Virus record (IMG/VR): IMGVR_UViG_3300013121_000024
Coordinates: 32,001-96,000 of that record
Origin: a virus
Taxonomy: Duplodnaviria; Caudoviricetes
Length of the DNA: 64,000 bases
Direction: 5' to 3' (one strand)
The position numbers and the translations under genes are program-made. How positions within the stretch are numbered: position 1 is the first letter of the stretch; each line of letters opens with the position of its first letter. Of this stretch, positions 9,299 through 53,368 are shown in pieces. Under the pieces are notes generated by a model. That model ran no database searches, had not been told where the DNA came from, and saw only the letters and a program-made list of their open reading frames with translations.

Positions 9299-9475
9299 GA
9301 TATGGGTGTCCTTTGGGTTGTATTGTTGTCAATGATCAGTAATTGTCATTTTCAGGGGGGTACTTTTTACATAATTGGCCACCAACCACACCTACCAGTG
9401 CGATTACAAGACCAATTAATATAAAAATTATAGCAGGAGACATAACTGTTTTCTTTCAGTTCTTAACTTAAGTTG

Positions 9476-9530
9476 AATAATAGAGGTTCCATCACGGATG
9501 GCAACCTCTATTATTCTTCAAGGATAACAA
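9476..9530 (-). promoter_or_regulatory. Sigma70-like early promoter within a palindrome, copy 1 of a 55-bp repeat
   Basis: TTGCCA-N16-TATTAT on minus strand; identical to 10030-10084. Confidence 0.6.
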
Positions 9531-10029
9531 CGTGTTAAGCCGCCTCGGAAACTTCCGTGTCGTTCTGGTCCAATATTACATAGTGTTCAGCCAGCTTACG
9601 GAACTGGGGTACATGGGAATTGAGATGGTTTGCGATCAGTCGAAAGCAATCCTCCAGGACAGCGGACCTTAATACAGTCCGTTCTACAGTTATATTAGGG
9701 GTTTCTTCTTTGTATACAACCCTATACATTCCCATGTTGTGGTGTCCTTTTTTGTTTGCTTGTGTTATCTGTCACATTAACTTATTTAGTACCAATTTTA
9801 TTCACCAAACAGTTCATTCCATTCTTCAGGTGTGATGCCTGTCATGATGAATTCACGGTCTTCTGGTGAAAGATTGGGCATTGCGTTTTGAATTAGCTCA
9901 CCAGCCCGCCAGGAATCAAGCTGTTCCTGCGTGACATCAATTTCCAATTGATGCATTTTACCAGTAAACGGCGATTTACGAACAATCTTCATCGTTTTGG
10001 TTCTTTCTTTCGCTTCATAATTTATGTAT

Positions 10030-10084
10030 AATAATAGAGGTTCCATCACGGATGGCAACCTCTATTATTCTTCAAGGATAACAA
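10030..10084 (-). promoter_or_regulatory. Sigma70-like early promoter within a palindrome, copy 2
   Basis: Exact repeat of 9476-9530. Confidence 0.6.
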
Positions 10085-10121: not shown

Positions 10122-11507
10122 TTATGTCTGTGTTACACTTGTCTTTATTATGTCGTGCACAACCGAATGAACGACCGCATGAACGGCCGCCAGGATGGCC
10201 GGGCCAACGGCCGAGCCAACGGCCGAGTAAACAGCCGAGTCAACGGCCGAGTAAACGGCTGAGCTAACGGCTAAGTTAACGGCCGAGTCAACGGTCGAGT
10301 GAACGTATAAGAAAACGACTGAATTTTTATAATTTTTATTCACCTAGTTCTCCTGGGTCAACGACTGAGTTAACGGCTGAGTTAATGGCCGAGCCAACGG
10401 CTGAATTGAGGGCCCGGTAAACGGATGAGAAAACGGCCGAGTAAACGTCCCAGTAAACGGCCGAGTCAACGGCCGAGGCAACGGCCGAGTGAACGGTCCA
10501 GTAAACGGCCGAATCAACGACTGAATTTTTGTAATTATTATTCACTTAGGTCTCCTGAGTAAACGACGGATTCAACGGCCAAGTAAACGGCCGAGTCAAC
10601 GGCTGAATTGAGGGCCCGGTAAACGGATGAGAAAACGGCCGAGTCAACGGCTGGGTCAACGGCTGAGTGAATGACAGAGTTAACGGTTGAGGTAACGGCT
10701 AAGAGAACGGCTAAGCCAACGGTTGAATTTTGATAAATGTCATCCATTCATGTCCACCGAGTCAATATCCCAGTAAACGGCCGAGCTAACGGCCGAATCA
10801 ACGACTGAATTTTTGTAATTATTATCCACTTAGGTCTCCTGAGTCAACGACTGAGCTAACGGCCGAGCTAACGGCCGAGCCAACGGCCGAGTGAACGGTC
10901 CAGTAAACGGCCGAGTAAACGGTTGAGGCCACGGCCGGGTCAACAGCCCAGTAAACGGCCGAGTCAACGGCCGAGTAAACGGTCAACTCAACGGCCGAGT
11001 CAACGGCCGAGCCAACAGCCGAGCCAACGGTTGAATTTTTGTAATTATTATCCACTTAGGTCTCCTGAGTAAACGACAGATTCAACGGCCAAGTAAACGG
11101 CCGAGCTAACGGCCGAGCCAACGGCCGAGCCAACGGCCGAGTGAACGTCACAGTAAACGGCTGAGCCAACGGCCGAGTGAACGGCTGAACAAACGGCCGA
11201 GCCAACGGCTGAGTAAACGGCCGAGCCAACGGCCGAGTTAACGTCTGAATTTTTATAATTTTTATCCACTTAGTTCTCCTGAGTAAACGACAGATTCAAC
11301 GGCCAAGTCAACGGCCGAGGCAACGGCCGAGTTAACGGCCGAGTCAATGACCGAGGCAACGGCCAAGTAAACGGCCGAGTCAACGGCCGAGTAAACGGCC
11401 GAGTCAACGGCCGAGTAAACGGTCCAGTCAACGGCCGAGGAAACGGCCGAGTAAACGGCCGAGTGAACGGCTGAGTCAACGGCCGAATTTCTGTAATTGT
11501 TATCCAC
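10122..11507 (-). repeat. Tandem array 1 of xSAV-repeat small genes (7 units, one truncated at ~10740-10829)
   Basis: ORFs 11262-11507, 11048-11269, 10822-11055, 10538-10747, 10336-10545, 10122-10343; each starts M(D/N)xxY(K/Q/R)NS; built of 12-nt NNCTCGGCCGTT repeats; 8-nt stop/start overlaps, most with GGAG in the upstream unit's tail. Confidence 0.9.
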
Positions 11508-11815
11508 TTAGGTCTCCTGGAGTGTCACGTCGTTGATAACGATTGTTCCACCACTAGACACTCATATGACTGATAATCATATCAATCCAAATTAAAAGTG
11601 CCGGGAACCAACATATAAGACAGGTTTGGTTCAAGATTTCCGTAATTTTCCCAAATACGAAGATGGTGCATAAAAAAGTTCTCATTATAAGTTGCAGTCA
11701 GATACTCTCCTCCGGACTCGACTTCTGTTTGGAAGTATACAGTGTACATGATATCTCTCCATGGAGTTCAACTAGGATTTAACTTCTAAAACCTTACAAT
11801 ATACGATATTCAATG

Positions 11816-29609: not shown

Positions 29610-29744
29610 TTACAGGAGTTATTTATTATGAATCACATCTTATTCGATTTAAATTTTAATACCCGATTGAACGATCTAGTTGACAACCAAATAAATGTTT
29701 GAGTAAAGGCTTACACCCACCGGTGATATATCTTTGGCGATAGT

Positions 29745-30870
29745 CCAGTAAACGACCGAGTAAACGGCCGAATATTCGAAATTGTTATCCACTATACCTC
29801 ATTATCTAACAGCCCAGGAAACGGTCGAGTAAACGGCTGAGCCAACGGCTGAGCCAACGGCCGAGTAAACGGCCGAGCTAACGGCCGAGTAAACAGTCGA
29901 ACGAACGACCGAGCCAACGTCCCAGTCAACGGCCGAGCTAACGGCCGAGTTAACGGCTGCGTAAACGGCCGAGGAAACGTCTGAACAAACGGCCGAATAT
30001 TTGAAATTGTTATCCACTATACCTCATGATCTAACAGTCGAGTTAACGGCTGAGTTAATGGCCGAGCCAACGGCTGAATTGAGGGCCCGGTAAACGGATG
30101 AGAAAACGGCCGAGTCAACGGCCGAGCGAACGGCCAAGCTAACGGCCGAGTCAACGGCCGAGTAAACGGCCGAGCGAACGGTCCAGTAAACGGCCGAGTC
30201 AACGGCCGAGTCAAGGGCCGAGTAAACGGCCGAGTCAACGGCCGAGTCAAGGGCCGAGCCAACGGCCGAGTAAACGGCTGAGCTAACGGCCGAGTCAACG
30301 GCCGAATATTTGAAATTGTTATCCACTTATACCTCATGATCTAACGGCCGAGTCAACGGCCGAGCGAACGGCCAAGCTAACGGCCGAGTCAACGGCCGAG
30401 CGAACGGCCAAGCTAACGGCCGAGTCAACGGCCGAGTAAACGGCTGAGCTAACGGCCGAGTCAACGGCCGAGTAAACGGCTGAGCTAACGGCCGAGTCAA
30501 CGGCCGAGTAAACGGCTGAGCTAACGGCTAAGTTAACGGCCGAATATTCGAAATTGTTATCCACTTATACCTCATGATCTAACGGCCGAGATAACGGCCG
30601 AACGAACGGTTAAGGCAACAGCCGAGCCGACGGAGGCACCGGCGGCCGAGCGAACGACCGAGCCAACGACCGAGGCAACGGCCGAGTCAACGGCTGAGTA
30701 AACGGCTGAGCTAACGGCCGAGTCAACGGTAGAGTAAACAGCCGAGTAAACAGCCGAGTCAACGGCCGAGTAAACGGCTGAGCTAACGGCTAAGTTAACG
30801 GCCGAATATTCGAAATTGTTATCCACTTATACCTCATGATCTAACAGTCGAGGAAACGGTCGAGGCCTCA
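29745..30870 (-). repeat. Tandem array 2 of xSAV-repeat small genes (4 full units plus degenerate end units)
   Basis: ORFs 30572-30826, 30334-30564, 30024-30326, 29802-30017, each MDNNF(E/K)YSAV...; near-identical linker GTTAGATCATGAGGTATAAGTGGATAACAATTTC between units. Confidence 0.9.
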
Positions 30871-30919
30871 CACTTCAGTGGAACTCAGTAGTTCTCCCAG
30901 TAAATGGTCTGAATATTTT

Positions 30920-31675
30920 TTATAAGTTGGCAGCCTGTACATGCATCCAATCAAAATCTCTAGTTCTTCCGAGAGACGTCCAACCCTCAGATTCCCACAA
31001 TTCCCACCATTTGTTATATTCCGGTTGAGCAAATCTGGCTTTACGGTGATCCAATCTCATTTCATTATGCTCGGCATCCCAATCGATTGCTATTCCCCAT
31101 GAGTGCATGCTGTATGAGTTACCACCTCTCATCTTTCGAACATTTAAGCTACCAGACCAAAGATCGAGACCAAGTCGCCTAATTTCATCGATGCCATAGT
31201 GTTTAAGGACCGCCTTGAGTACTCTATTTGCACTAGGAGCGACTTTCTTGTGTAAAGAGAACCGCTCTACTAATATTTTTGGAGACCAAGAAATCTTACA
31301 CTGATAAGGCAACTCTAACATAACCTGGTTCTCACCCACATCACCATAAAATTCATAAACATCTTTTTGGAAAGGCCATTGGTTATCTGTTGTGTTATTT
31401 ACTTCTGAACTTTTACCGGAGTCTCTTACTTGTTGATTTTGGAATTCTTCAAGTGCCTTATAATAAACTGGGCCCATAAACCCATCTATGCGGCCACTAT
31501 AAAAACTGGACATCATGACCTGTTGGACACCGACTGATAGTCGTGCATTGTTCCAGCCATCGGTATCAACGCCTCGTGATTCTAGTAAATCTTTGGCGGC
31601 CTCTCGTGTCTTAGGACCCCATTTGCCATCCGGAACCTGTCCCAGAAACTCCTGTACCTGTCTACTAGCAATCAC
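30920..31675 (-). CDS. M15-family peptidoglycan peptidase with peptidoglycan-binding domain
   Basis: DGKWGPKT/DGFMGP repeats, R...SMHSWGIAID...DWMHVQ; GTG start at 31675 after AAGGA (the longer ORF overlaps tRNA genes). Confidence 0.85.
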   Translation of the reverse strand: MIASRQVQEFLGQVPDGKWGPKTREAAKDLLESRGVDTDGWNNARLSVGVQQVMMSSFYSGRIDGFMGPVYYKALEEFQNQQVRDSGKSSEVNNTTDNQWPFQKDVYEFYGDVGENQVMLELPYQCKISWSPKILVERFSLHKKVAPSANRVLKAVLKHYGIDEIRRLGLDLWSGSLNVRKMRGGNSYSMHSWGIAIDWDAEHNEMRLDHRKARFAQPEYNKWWELWESEGWTSLGRTRDFDWMHVQAANL

Positions 31676-31704
31676 CGTGATATCCTTTTTGTTTTTATTG
31701 AAAT

Positions 31705-31780
31705 TGGTGGAGCCTAAGGGGATCGAACCCTTCCCTCCGCATTGCAAGTGCGGCGCGCCGCCCACGGCCACTGAGACCCC
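31705..31780 (-). tRNA. tRNA-Ala(UGC)
   Basis: Loop CTTGCAA, G3:U70, CCA. Confidence 0.85.
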
Positions 31781-31786
31781 ATTAAA

Positions 31787-31936
31787 TGGTATGCGAAACA
31801 GGATTTGATACCTGTAATGTCCATCGTCCATTGCATTTATACTATCCTAAAGTTATCCTAGGTTCTCAGGATACTTAATACAACGCCAACAAACCTCCCG
31901 GCTAACCCGGGCGAGTCTACATTCCTCCATTCGCAT
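31787..31936 (-). ncRNA. 150-nt tRNA-like RNA with the anticodon arm replaced by a large insert
   Basis: ATGCGAA/TTCGCAT-A-CCA acceptor, D-arm, T-arm-like ACAGGTATCAAATCCTGT, about 90-100 nt between D and T arms. Confidence 0.6.
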
Positions 31937-34184: not shown

Positions 34185-34562
34185 TTAGTCCCTAACCTGT
34201 CTCCAGCCCTCTGGAGTATGCTCTCTCTGTCGTCTCACTTCATACAATCCGACACTGAACATAATAGGTTTATGGGTATCATACGACCTCAGGTGGTCCA
34301 GTGTAGTAGGCCTATTAACCTTCAACCACGAATTCAAAGGATCATCACCTGTGAACATTTGCACGTTTGGTGTGTCATCCTCCTCATATTCTGGACGGTC
34401 CAATACCATCACGTGGTTATGGCCCGTTTCACTATGGGTGACAACAATTTGTCCATGTTCAGGTAAAACTTCCTTCATACCAGAAGGAATAGAGTCAACC
34501 TTGATGAACAAAACATCACCCTGGGCCGATACCTTATTAAATGTCACGTAGTTCTTTTTCAT
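34185..34562 (-). CDS. Conserved His-rich partner of DUF6745 proteins
   Basis: QGDVL...HSETGHNH...H.....H..I....G.YEVRRQRE. Confidence 0.6.
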   Translation of the reverse strand: MKKNYVTFNKVSAQGDVLFIKVDSIPSGMKEVLPEHGQIVVTHSETGHNHVMVLDRPEYEEDDTPNVQMFTGDDPLNSWLKVNRPTTLDHLRSYDTHKPIMFSVGLYEVRRQREHTPEGWRQVRD

Positions 34563-35737
34563 GTTCTTACCTCCGGTACAATAAAATCTTTAGTATTCAG
34601 TCCCCAGGTCCAAGCCTGGGCCTCAAGTGCAGTATTAACCTCTTTGGGCACAGGAAGCGCAAATTCTCTATTTGTACCACAAAGTACCTTCAAGAACCTT
34701 TCTTTTCCTGCATCCGGTAGCGTGACTTCCAACAGTTCGCCCACCATTGGATCTGGATGCTTATTTATGCAAACCGCATTCAGTTGTTCCAGGATTTTAT
34801 TCCAACCCAGAATTTCACAGCCGGCCCGGCGTTGTTCGATATTCGATGTGAGCAGAACGTCCTGTGGATTTATGGATGACTTATTCATAATCCAATTTTT
34901 AGGAACACTCACACCGTGCCAGAAGTACAGCTTAAAGGTGTCACCATAATCGATTGCCGGACCAGTTTCACTATGTAATCTACCCTGGTCATCTTTCTTG
35001 ATGCCATGTGGTCTTTCACATACCATGATAAAATTCTTGTTCGGCCAATAGTAACCGGCCGACCTGCAAATTTCACCCTCAGCTTTGATATATCTCCACA
35101 CCTTTGGATTTTCAGACTGATCGATGCCAAGCATCAAACAGGTTTCCACGAAAGCTGGCCAATTAATCCAGAACTGACCACCACGCCATGTATGCCACCA
35201 AATAACACTTTTCTTGGCAGACTTAAATCCGTTTGTCAAATTCTTTTTGATGTCATTTTTATTTTTATTCGACTTGCCGGCCGGAAGTTGAGACTTGACA
35301 TTCTCCAACACAGTACGAACAATTGTGGAGACGATTTCACCTTCCGCCTCTCGGGAAATTCTGGTGTCATTCTTGGATGTGATAAAATCTTTAATTACCG
35401 TTTCCGAAAAGTTCCTTGTAACATCCTCCAGCACTTCCAACAGTTCTGTAGAAGTTTCCTTATAGCCAAGCGAATGAAAGACATCGATAAGGGTGCTAGA
35501 AATCGGTGCTGCAAGTGCACCTACAATTGGACTATTCACCCAGACAATAGGAACTGTCGCATTCAAATTAATATCGGTGTACAATTCACGAAAAGCCTTT
35601 TCGGCCCTATTTCGATCGGCCGGTTCACATCGAAGACCATCCTCAATGGCCTTTTTTACAATGTCCGGGAACTTGGCCTTTAGGTCTTCTGGAATATAAC
35701 TAATCTTCTTTGACATTACTTTCACCTTTTTTATCAT
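34559..35737 (-). CDS. DUF6745-domain protein
   Basis: PADR..AE..F..LY...IVWVNSP; GYYWP......CERP...DDQGRLH...GPAI.Y.D...Y.WHGV.VP; N.EQRR; LKV.CGT.REF..PVP...A.AWTWGL. Confidence 0.7.
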   Translation of the reverse strand: MIKKVKVMSKKISYIPEDLKAKFPDIVKKAIEDGLRCEPADRNRAEKAFRELYTDINLNATVPIVWVNSPIVGALAAPISSTLIDVFHSLGYKETSTELLEVLEDVTRNFSETVIKDFITSKNDTRISREAEGEIVSTIVRTVLENVKSQLPAGKSNKNKNDIKKNLTNGFKSAKKSVIWWHTWRGGQFWINWPAFVETCLMLGIDQSENPKVWRYIKAEGEICRSAGYYWPNKNFIMVCERPHGIKKDDQGRLHSETGPAIDYGDTFKLYFWHGVSVPKNWIMNKSSINPQDVLLTSNIEQRRAGCEILGWNKILEQLNAVCINKHPDPMVGELLEVTLPDAGKERFLKVLCGTNREFALPVPKEVNTALEAQAWTWGLNTKDFIVPEVRT

Positions 35738-50740: not shown

Positions 50741-53368
50741 TTATACCTCACAATTTCCACTACCACATGCCAGAATTTGGGTGCCTTCGGTTTCGTCTAC
50801 AGTTTCTTGCAAGGAATCCCAATCAATATGAGTAGGCATCTTTTCCAACATCTCCTCATATTTTTCCTTAGTTACGGTCTCATAAGGAGCCTGTCTATAT
50901 GAGCCGCCATCATAAGGAAGGAAGGAGATACCGCTAATGGAATCAAAATTTCTCCATACCCAGGCACCAACATCGAACCATTCATCTTCTCTAATGTTTA
51001 CTGTAACACTCGGTTTATGTTCACACCAGTATTTCTGGTATACCAACCAAAGTTTTAGGTGATCGATAGCGGATATTGACTCTCGTGTTATCGCACCATC
51101 AGGGGCCTTCTTAGGAAATGAGAATACCGTTGTGAAATCAGGGTTAGTCACATCTGGTTCAAATGGAATTCCAGCCTCTTTAAGGAACTGTGTAAGTGGA
51201 TCCTTATTGTCACTTCTTACCCTTCGTATATAATAGTTGTCATGTCTAGGATGGATACCAGAGGCACTATCAACTAATTGTGACACGGTACCAGAGGGTT
51301 TTACAGCCGTAACAGCGACCGATGGCTCTATACCAATATCCTTGGCCAACTGATTATTGGTATCAATGGCAATTTGTTTTAACTCGGCCAAGAATGGTCC
51401 TAAGTTATTATCCTTATAGTTGTTAAGGATATGATGGTCGTAAATACCGGTGAGTGATACGCCTAACAATCTTTCTTCTTCCACATTTTTCTTCCAGATT
51501 TTTCTCAAATAGGGGAAATGTGTGAATGTGGATTGCAATGTACCTAGAACCGTGGCCAGACGGACCTTCCTCTTAAGGTCGTCTCCTGTATCTCTGGCTC
51601 GAACCACCACCTCAGATAAGTTACACATTTGATTGGGCCGGAGAATAATTTCGGAGCAGTTTCCGGTTTGACAATGGTCCAATTCAAAACTATGATCCTC
51701 GTGATTTACTGTAATATCCCACACCGGTTCGGTTCTATTTGTTTCCAATATGTCCTTAATCTTCCAGTGGGAAGATTGTATGTTTGTATGTTTGTGTGTA
51801 AGATTTTTATTTATATTTAACCTGGTTTGTTTATCGTTTCTCGATAATTTGAAAATATTTGAAAAGTGTTTTTTAGATTCAATATCTTTGACATGAATGG
51901 AATAGGACTGCCTAACATTTTTCACGGTTTTGCCTTTAATGATAATATCGGCCTCTGATATTTTTCTAATTTTTTTACTTACCTTTATGCCATAACAACC
52001 AAGTAAAGAGGCCAAATCATCGACCAATTTTTCATGTACCGACACAAAATCTATTCCTCCTCCGGTATTTACATGTCCATCTGAGGATATCAATCCGTCC
52101 ACTAGACCCTTTCTAAATTCTTCACTGGCTTCTTTCCATACAGAAAGAGGAAGTCCATTTGATTTATGTGATACTCCGTGTTCTTCAAACAGTTTATTAA
52201 GTGTCTCTCCGCTTAAGTTTACTTCGGGTGCACCATTTGTTTTTGCATTTATCCATCCATCACAAAGATTCCATCCAATCATGAACCCATCATCGTATGA
52301 ACCTAATGTACCGAATGGTAACACATCCTTCTTATGGTTTGAAGGAATATAATCACCCGGCTTCAATTCCGTGGTCTGTAACCTTAATTCTTTTCCTGAA
52401 CGTACAACAGGCCATTTGTGTTGGGCCGTGGCAAAATATGAAATGTTTCCCGGTAAAACTATTTCATAAAGTTTAGCCGAAGGTGACGAAAGAAAACACT
52501 TAGCCGGAGCCACAGATTTATCCAGAGTATTCACGAAAAAATCACGGCCTTCTAATTCCTCTATACTAAAAATTCCTTCTGTGGTAAATACTTTTGTTCC
52601 TTTCGCCAAAGACGGGTTGGTACCCCATTCATGGTCTGGATTACGGCGGCCATTGGCTTTAATTATATTCTTACTGGCCGCCCTGTTGAAAATACCACGT
52701 TCTCCGGATTTGGACTCATATAGCGCAAGCCATTCTTGCAAGAAAATGCCTATATCCGGTCTTTCTGTGTATACGGCACTGTTATTAGATAGGGCCCTCT
52801 GCACATTAGCTTCCCACCAGGCACCACTTTTAGCATGTCTCATCCTGTCATCAGAAAGGTTGGAGAGGGATATCATCGCCGACCGCCGGACGCCTCCTAC
52901 CACTACCACCTCACCTATCTTACACATAATATCATGGCATTCCAAGGAAGTTAATTTCCTTCCTTTGGCGTTACGGAACACATTACAGACAAATCTGAAT
53001 AAATCTTCCAATGGTCCAGGACCGGAGGCTCGACCTCCAAAAGTCTTAAGTGGAGATCCAGCCGGCCTTACCTGTGATGTATCCCATTTTGGAATCTCCC
53101 CTGAATACAATAGTGCTATAAGTTGCCGCAGGGCCTTGGCCCATCCTTCCTTGGAATCCTTGACAACAATGGTGGTATCGGAATCAAACATCTTTTCTGG
53201 AACTTCTGGTAATTGATTTACATATTGACGTTCCACAGAAAATCCAACACCTGATCCACAATTATGTACTACTGAGCCATTTTCAAGAACAAAATTATGA
53301 TTATCAGGAATAGTAATATCCCAATAATTTCTATCATCACTGATAATCTCTTTTCTAACTATTTTCAT
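50741..53368 (-). CDS. nrdJ: Class II ribonucleotide reductase, C-terminal fragment with split-intein C part and a cis intein
   Basis: GSGVGFS, GGVRRSA, GTNP/CSEI, CNLSE, VKPSGTVSQL, YIRRVR, C-terminal CGSGNC. Confidence 0.93.
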   Translation of the reverse strand: MKIVRKEIISDDRNYWDITIPDNHNFVLENGSVVHNCGSGVGFSVERQYVNQLPEVPEKMFDSDTTIVVKDSKEGWAKALRQLIALLYSGEIPKWDTSQVRPAGSPLKTFGGRASGPGPLEDLFRFVCNVFRNAKGRKLTSLECHDIMCKIGEVVVVGGVRRSAMISLSNLSDDRMRHAKSGAWWEANVQRALSNNSAVYTERPDIGIFLQEWLALYESKSGERGIFNRAASKNIIKANGRRNPDHEWGTNPSLAKGTKVFTTEGIFSIEELEGRDFFVNTLDKSVAPAKCFLSSPSAKLYEIVLPGNISYFATAQHKWPVVRSGKELRLQTTELKPGDYIPSNHKKDVLPFGTLGSYDDGFMIGWNLCDGWINAKTNGAPEVNLSGETLNKLFEEHGVSHKSNGLPLSVWKEASEEFRKGLVDGLISSDGHVNTGGGIDFVSVHEKLVDDLASLLGCYGIKVSKKIRKISEADIIIKGKTVKNVRQSYSIHVKDIESKKHFSNIFKLSRNDKQTRLNINKNLTHKHTNIQSSHWKIKDILETNRTEPVWDITVNHEDHSFELDHCQTGNCSEIILRPNQMCNLSEVVVRARDTGDDLKRKVRLATVLGTLQSTFTHFPYLRKIWKKNVEEERLLGVSLTGIYDHHILNNYKDNNLGPFLAELKQIAIDTNNQLAKDIGIEPSVAVTAVKPSGTVSQLVDSASGIHPRHDNYYIRRVRSDNKDPLTQFLKEAGIPFEPDVTNPDFTTVFSFPKKAPDGAITRESISAIDHLKLWLVYQKYWCEHKPSVTVNIREDEWFDVGAWVWRNFDSISGISFLPYDGGSYRQAPYETVTKEKYEEMLEKMPTHIDWDSLQETVDETEGTQILACGSGNCEV
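51659..52612 (-). mobile_element. 318-aa cis intein with LAGLIDADG endonuclease at GTNP|CSE
   Basis: Starts SLAKGTKV, block B ATAQHKW, FMIGWNLCDG and LVDGLISSDG motifs, VWDITV...TGN|C. Confidence 0.9.
53261..53368 (-). mobile_element. Split intein C-fragment (36 aa)
   Basis: MKIV...YWDIT...HNFVL.NG.VVHN|CGSGVGF. Confidence 0.92.

Follow-up and report, generated by a model that had tools for sequence, protein, structure and literature searches.

The window analysed here, a stretch of 64,000 nt corresponding to bases 32001-96000 of a 150-kb IMG/VR virus record with an estimated completeness of 83%, carries two arrays of short tandem reading frames built from a 12-nt repeat, which raises the question of whether these frames are translated genes and, if so, with what their products would work. 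The genes of the window mark a cyanophage-like myovirus (Kyanoviridae Gp96, a class II ribonucleotide reductase with an intein, a carbamoyltransferase and a DUF2828 gene), and a DNA search of INPHARED returned no close relatives of this phage. The reductase, a B12-dependent class II enzyme, lies at 50741-53368 and is split by an intein with a LAGLIDADG domain. Searching IMG/VR with the genes flanking the arrays yielded relatives of at most 36% identity, none of which had the arrays, and the DNA pattern of the array junctions was not found in IMG/VR. A tblastn search gave no match to a mini-protein, probably owing to low-complexity masking, and only two distant matches to the DUF6745 protein of this phage (P0001, described below). 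Our literature search found no paper on DUF6745, on the xSAV repeat or on detached mini-gene arrays, and a search with the repeat strings returned irrelevant matches only.

Two arrays of tandem mini-genes

Array 1 (10122-11507, minus strand) is filled by seven head-to-tail mini-ORFs, six of 69-81 aa and a truncated one of 29 aa, while array 2 (29676-30826, minus strand) has five, and no other such array occurs within the 150-kb record (Table 1). The initial annotation had described array 1 as seven head-to-tail genes with a conserved head, tails that carry the ribosome-binding site (RBS) and bodies of 12-nt units, and this was confirmed from the ORFs, TRF and unit counts. TRF detected a 12-nt period and a higher-order period of ~202 nt in array 1, and the 164 near-consensus units of both arrays gave the consensus NNC TCG GCC GTT, that is, a variable residue x followed by Ser, Ala and Val. 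The heads of array 1 read M(D/N)(N/K/D)(N/I)Y(K/R/Q)NS. Four of its tails end in SG(D/E)LS(G/E) and a fifth in PGELGE before the stop codon, and in all five a GGAG motif precedes the following GTG by 6 nt, while the stop codon shares nucleotides with that start (GTGGATAA or GTGAATAA). Array 2 has a related head, MDNNF(K/E)YS, but unlike junctions, in which a SAVRS tail and a TGA stop are followed by GAGG 5 nt before GTG. Across both arrays, 11 of the 12 mini-genes start with GTG, and 11 of the 12 have GGAG or GAGG 5-6 nt upstream of the start.

Table 1 Mini-genes of the two arrays and the DUF6745 locus of the same phage (positions in the window).
Feature	Position	Strand	Description
Decayed leader unit	11508..11550	-	Head-like GTGGTGGAACAATCG, then tail-like CCAGGAGACCTAA, the RBS source of mini-gene 1
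Mini-gene 1, array 1	11262..11507	-	81 aa; GTG start; head MDNNYRNS; 16 xSAV-type units; tail SGELSG
Mini-gene 2, array 1	11048..11269	-	73 aa; GTG start overlapping the upstream stop
Mini-gene 3, array 1	10822..11055	-	77 aa
Truncated mini-gene, array 1	10740..10829	-	29 aa; head normal, body shortened
Mini-gene 5, array 1	10538..10747	-	69 aa; ATG start; diverged junction; head MDDIYQNS
Mini-gene 6, array 1	10336..10545	-	69 aa; block FSSVYRALNSAVGSAINS, also present in array 2
Last mini-gene, array 1	10122..10343	-	73 aa; tail divergent
Mini-gene, array 2	30572-30826	-	84 aa
Mini-gene, array 2	30334-30564	-	76 aa
Mini-gene, array 2	30024-30326	-	100 aa
Mini-gene, array 2	29802-30017	-	71 aa
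Mini-gene, array 2	29676-29792	-	38 aa, degenerate
DUF6745 gene (P0001)	34559..35737	-	N-domain and PF20530 domain (2.7e-29)
His-rich partner gene	34185..34562	-	125 aa; HSETGHNH; start overlaps the DUF6745 stop

The other frames of the repeats are open too, so open frames by themselves were no proof of translation. Among the ten fixed positions of the unit, variation was greatest at two third codon positions that are synonymous in the xSAV frame (48 and 27 changes), whereas the second base of the Val codon was T in 163 of the 164 units. Amino-acid changes at the Val codon numbered ten, nine of them to I or L and one to A, and at the CpG of TCG the synonymous G>A change was found 42 times against 14 occurrences of the C>T change that replaces S by L. 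This substitution pattern indicates protein-level constraint in the xSAV frame. At the junction at 10747 the start had changed from GTG to ATG and the stop from TAA to TGA, so that both signals survive ~8 substitutions. Motifs resembling Shine-Dalgarno (SD) sequences precede 47% of the long ORFs of the window, against a background of 16%. Codon usage in the arrays is atypical for this genome, where TCG elsewhere makes up 11% of Ser codons and GAC/TAC 29%. The earlier proposal that preservation of the RBS, start and stop speaks for translated genes and against a neutral minisatellite was borne out by the two junction designs, the compensating changes and the substitutions that follow the frame, and we consider with good confidence that these features point to real genes. 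Reading of each array as one long gene by frameshifting was rejected: a stop in the upstream frame stands at each junction, in array 2 a TAA follows the TGA in-frame, and each junction offers a well-spaced SD and start for the next frame.

Several other features were noted around the arrays. Upstream of array 2, a decayed extra unit at 30860-30930 consists of a head-like sequence and a YW-type repeat remnant, and overlaps the 3' end of an M15-peptidase / PG-binding gene (30920-31831). A ~60-nt hairpin-forming element with a AATAGAGGTT...AACCTCTATT stem occurs twice, at 9473-9538 and at 10024-10060, one copy lying directly downstream of array 1; both copies yield one spurious peptide, NNRGSITDGNLYYSSRIT, and the element may be a terminator or an intergenic repeat. 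The array 1 junctions (10332-11073, minus strand) also contain a sigma-70-like TTGACT/TTTACT-N18-AATAAT pattern with 9-10 of 12 positions matching, from which transcripts would begin inside the head, and we set these promoter-like hexamers aside as probably a chance by-product of the coding sequence GTT GAC TCA ... GAT AAT AAT.

Relation of the repeat to the DUF6745 family

No Pfam or PHROG family reached threshold on any mini-protein, the PF20530 domain being absent from them, and a protein search limited to similar lengths returned no match. Against longer proteins, however, the 81-aa mini-protein gave 80 matches with E-values down to 3e-32, almost all of them PF20530 (DUF6745) proteins, which aligned over the repeat at 51-79% identity. 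Nearly all 80 share one architecture, in which an N-domain of ~80 aa is followed by an (xSAV)n tract of variable length and then by the DUF6745 domain. These alignments argue, with high confidence, that the mini-gene repeat and the central tract of DUF6745 proteins are homologous. The fused genes lie in early or recombination regions of phage and prophage contigs, with an exonuclease or ERF gene as neighbour and a small gene after them. Their products (e.g., P0028, P0031 and L009:194-1315) have the xSAV peptide, at 66-77% identity over the repeat, and the 12-nt unit design seen in the window, with only the first two bases of the x codon varying. In the window, by contrast, the repeat stands outside the protein, spread over 12 individual genes (29-100 aa) that have a new type of head and tail, 6-8 aa long, and its units are more diverged than the near-perfect tracts of the fused genes. 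In P0069 and P0097, ~208-aa proteins of an unrelated family (PF24703), the C-terminal part likewise consists of an xSA(V/A) repeat; from its distribution across sequences, the repeat helix looks like a mobile module common to several phage protein families.

The phage has a DUF6745 gene of its own, P0001, which lies 3.7 kb and 23 kb from the two arrays. Its central tract (approximately residues 87-180) is non-repetitive, retains a hydrophobic period of 4 (LLEV LEDV TRNF SETV IKDF) and was modelled as a helical bundle. Since its nearest relative, P0028 (48% identical overall), has ~23 xSAV units exactly at the position of this segment, which is of the same length, the in-built repeat of P0001 appears to have decayed. 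For the fold of P0001, Foldseek found no PDB match at E ≤ 0.001, the PDB sequence search was empty, and the best VIA wide hit (Z 6.3) covered residues 69-157 only, with nothing above the level of a generic helical bundle. The His-rich partner gene, a conserved companion in the family, shares 42% identity with the gene that directly follows DUF6745 in locus L034, an adjacency that applies to the scaffold gene and not to the arrays. The initial annotation was right to see a library of variants in array 1, but it had missed the link to the DUF6745 tract as well as the phage's own DUF6745 gene and partner.

A profile scan of IMG/VR returned 80 loci, in which xSAV-bearing frames were counted where complete within the locus (n = 39). 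Thirty-five of these were long fused DUF6745 genes with a median of 414 aa, and the other four were mini-ORFs, all in locus L111; a profile with the L111 mini-proteins was needed to find further stand-alone forms (5.8-billion-protein set). Detached mini-gene arrays were thereby seen in four independent metagenomic loci. In L111, ~12 mini-genes, with heads MNNII(N/S/Y)S and joined by ATGA overlaps, flank a DUF6745 gene whose tract has decayed, and L120 has, in order, a repeat-less DUF6745 gene of 291 aa, a 74-aa mini-gene and the partner. The contigs L118 and L119 are short, and no DUF6745 gene lies within the stretch they cover; they have 11 and five tandem mini-genes, respectively, and several tails in L119 read SGTLD, close to SGDLSG in the window. 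All four resemble the window in having tandem, same-strand, translationally coupled ORFs of 50-100 aa made of x(S/W/L)AV units, and the heads are related (MNNIINS in L111, MDNNYKNS in the window), but they differ from it in their codons, ATG starts and ATGA overlaps. Moreover, the mini-genes adjoin the DUF6745 gene in L111 and L120, whereas the window has arrays set apart from that gene, two junction designs and GTG starts. That the tract has been detached and multiplied as genes in the window and four further loci suggests that the repeat helix is a self-standing functional module working with the scaffold. About half of the contigs with xSAV tracts (IMG/VR loci L038-L117) begin or end within the tract, so xSAV repeats routinely break short-read assemblies and the assembled copy numbers, those of the window included, need caution.

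Diversification of the repeat units

Each fused homologue uses a single set of Ser, Ala and Val codons along its tract, and the set differs from gene to gene: L033 has TCA GCA GTC with NRT, repeated 50 times, L034 has TCG GCG GTG, and L035 has TCA GCC GTG. This difference between genes indicates that the peptide, and not a DNA word, is conserved across lineages. In the fused tracts of L033, L034, L035 and L009, as well as in that of mycobacteriophage Tweety (L037:5645-6769), only one codon varies, and only at its first two bases (N-R-C, N-R-T or N-R-G), while all other bases are kept over up to 50 units, synonymous sites included. We know of no mutational mechanism that accounts for so restricted a pattern. 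Judging from these comparisons, the units within a gene are homogenised with diversity retained at x, and the units of the window are older and more diverged than the fused tracts. TAL-effector-type repeats are likewise near-identical at the DNA level except at the hypervariable residue position, a likeness that fits concerted evolution combined with selection for a diverse residue at one site; their units have 34 residues, against four in the window, and the likeness is one of design only, without relation in sequence or structure.

Exact blocks of 30-76 nt, non-consensus units included, are common to arrays 1 and 2, which lie 20 kb apart, and the lengths of the mini-genes differ by multiples of 12 nt. 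Together these shared blocks and length steps fit slippage and recombination, in agreement with the earlier view of a library of length and sequence variants diversified by both processes. The CGGCCG palindrome is present in 107 copies in the window, where 3.9 would be expected, and some 80 of these copies lie inside the two arrays; a DNA-level role had been suggested for it. That role did not hold up: homologues encode the same peptide without the palindrome (TCA GCA GTC, TCG GCG GTG, TCG GCA GTY), and we rejected the palindrome as a functional feature on the grounds that it is not conserved in them.

Predicted helices, docking and competing explanations

AF2 modelled the 81-aa mini-protein as one helix (residues 2-78, pLDDT 87). 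The mini-proteins are acidic, with a pI of 4.1-4.7 in 11 of the 12, and the string of x residues is unique to each. A complex model of P0001 with the mini-protein reached an ipSAE of 0.64 (0.56, 0.64 and 0.81 in three runs), compared with 0.01 for the best control; of 80 solved complexes 58 attained this mark, as did 2 of 110 mismatched pairs, a calibration that applies only roughly here, since the models used our own alignments. In these models the helix sits between residues 23-35 (the N-domain helix of P0001) and residues 185-217 (the first helices of the DUF6745 domain). The partner pLDDT in the docking runs was at least 64 and the contact agreement at least 7%, a value low enough to leave the pose and register undefined, which fits a repeat able to slide in register. 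The P0001 alignment includes fused homologues, and this may bias the model toward placing the helix there. On these terms the modelling supports binding of the mini-protein to P0001.

Taking these lines together, we lean slightly towards an explanation in which the arrays are libraries of translated, free-standing repeat helices that became detached from the (xSAV)n tract of DUF6745 proteins and dock in trans on P0001. Each mini-gene would be translated from its own Shine-Dalgarno sequence and start, with translational coupling to its neighbour, and would yield one acidic alpha-helix of ~110 A, differing from the others in its length and string of x residues. With the repeat tract of P0001 itself decayed, the mini-proteins would dock in the groove formed by residues 23-35 and 185-217, so that one scaffold and its His-rich partner could be armed with any of about ten alternative helices. 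Slippage in 12-nt steps, together with recombination inside each array and from one to the other, would generate new variants. That the mini-proteins act through the DUF6745 scaffold we propose with moderate confidence on the basis of the models; counting against the explanation as a whole are the separation of the arrays from the DUF6745 gene, the atypical codon usage and the GTG starts of 11 of the 12 mini-genes.

The repeat helix may further act as the evolvable part and determine specificity or geometry towards a host target, for which a defence system is plausible; the analogy here is with gp54 of mycobacteriophage Tweety (EF536069, gene 54), the closest system that has been studied, in which changes in repeat number tune counter-defence against Phrann gp29/gp30 (PMC9262239). 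The sequence of Tweety gp54 contains 48 units of (G/W/Q)(S/Y)AA, encoded by GGG/TGG/CAG, AGC/TAC, GCC and GCA, and thus resembles the window in its 12-nt in-frame repeat, few variable bases and invariant Ala codons, with x-S/Y-A-A in place of x-S-A-V. In contrast to the mini-proteins, which have only a head and tail of 6-8 aa, it is one polypeptide chain whose N- and C-terminal domains are unique, and no detached mini-genes have been described for it. It had no Pfam match, and profile comparison with DUF6745 gave only a 13-column alignment; as it is not a DUF6745 protein, the analogy is loose, one of design and not of descent. An anti-defence function, already raised by the initial annotation, gained this analogy, and with low to moderate confidence we suggest that the system might serve counter-defence.

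If the arrays were a neutral or decaying minisatellite, the untranslated debris of a former DUF6745 tract with fortuitous ORFs, one would understand the several open frames, the atypical codons and the truncated and decayed copies in and at the edges of the arrays, and high-order tandem duplication alone can copy an RBS and start; we regard this as improbable, however, in view of the frame-specific substitutions, the retention of start and stop through compensating changes in two junction designs, and the recurrence of a related head and tandem coupling in unrelated contigs with other codons and ATG starts. Very improbable, in our estimation, is a role as silent donor cassettes that recombine into the DUF6745 gene, as in antigenic variation. 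The exact blocks of 30-76 nt in both arrays do show that exchange happens, but the central tract of P0001 has no copy of any 12-nt unit to recombine with, and cassettes would have no need of an RBS, start and stop of their own. Finally, the variable NN could have been written by adenine-specific, DGR-like reverse-transcriptase mutagenesis of an (AAC TCG GCC GTT)n template, which would suit the NNC form of the variable codon and the absence of adenine from the constant bases of the window consensus. This we find scarcely credible: the 150-kb record (83% complete) has no RVT_1 match and, beyond its two arrays, no separate template copy; adenines are invariant at constant positions of homologues (TCA GCA GTC, 50 times, in L033; TCA in L035), and 34 TCA units occur in the window arrays; and Tweety gp54 varies among GGG, TGG and CAG.

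Other explanations accept translation and dispense with the scaffold. The mini-proteins could act alone, either as decoys that mimic the repeat helix for a host sensor or as self-assembling acidic helices, and here the distance of the arrays from the DUF6745 gene, the low pI of 11 of the 12 products and the presence of an xSA(V/A) helix on unrelated domains (Tweety gp54; PF24703 proteins P0069 and P0097), maybe as an autonomous module, are all in favour. We nonetheless judge independent action rather unlikely, as mini-genes adjoin a DUF6745 gene with a decayed or absent tract in two of the four other loci (L111 and L120) and the docking model passes its controls. Membrane-active amphipathic peptides of the holin, bacteriocin or pardaxin type are brought to mind by the amphipathic period of 4 and by sub-threshold Pfam matches to Pardaxin (20.2 bits, cut-off 25) and Gly-zipper, but those matches are all under the curated cut-offs and on low-complexity sequence, the peptides are acidic and not cationic and have no signal or transmembrane segment, and the same tract is internal to cytoplasmic-looking two-domain proteins, which makes such a function highly implausible.

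Docking of the detached helices on P0001 thus remains the reading we prefer. Beyond it, the DUF6745 scaffold and its partner might form a split combinatorial system that takes any helix from a genome-encoded, fast-evolving library, a tentative idea that we hold possible but on balance doubtful. If it were true, one phage would field about ten variants of the complex at once, for instance against several variants of a host defence, and would renew its library by 12-nt slippage and inter-array recombination. The DUF6745 tract of tetrapeptides recurs in about 80 IMG/VR viral contigs, and if docking holds, the arrays would represent a new viral route to protein diversity, in which a library of exchangeable subunit genes takes the place of mutating one gene.
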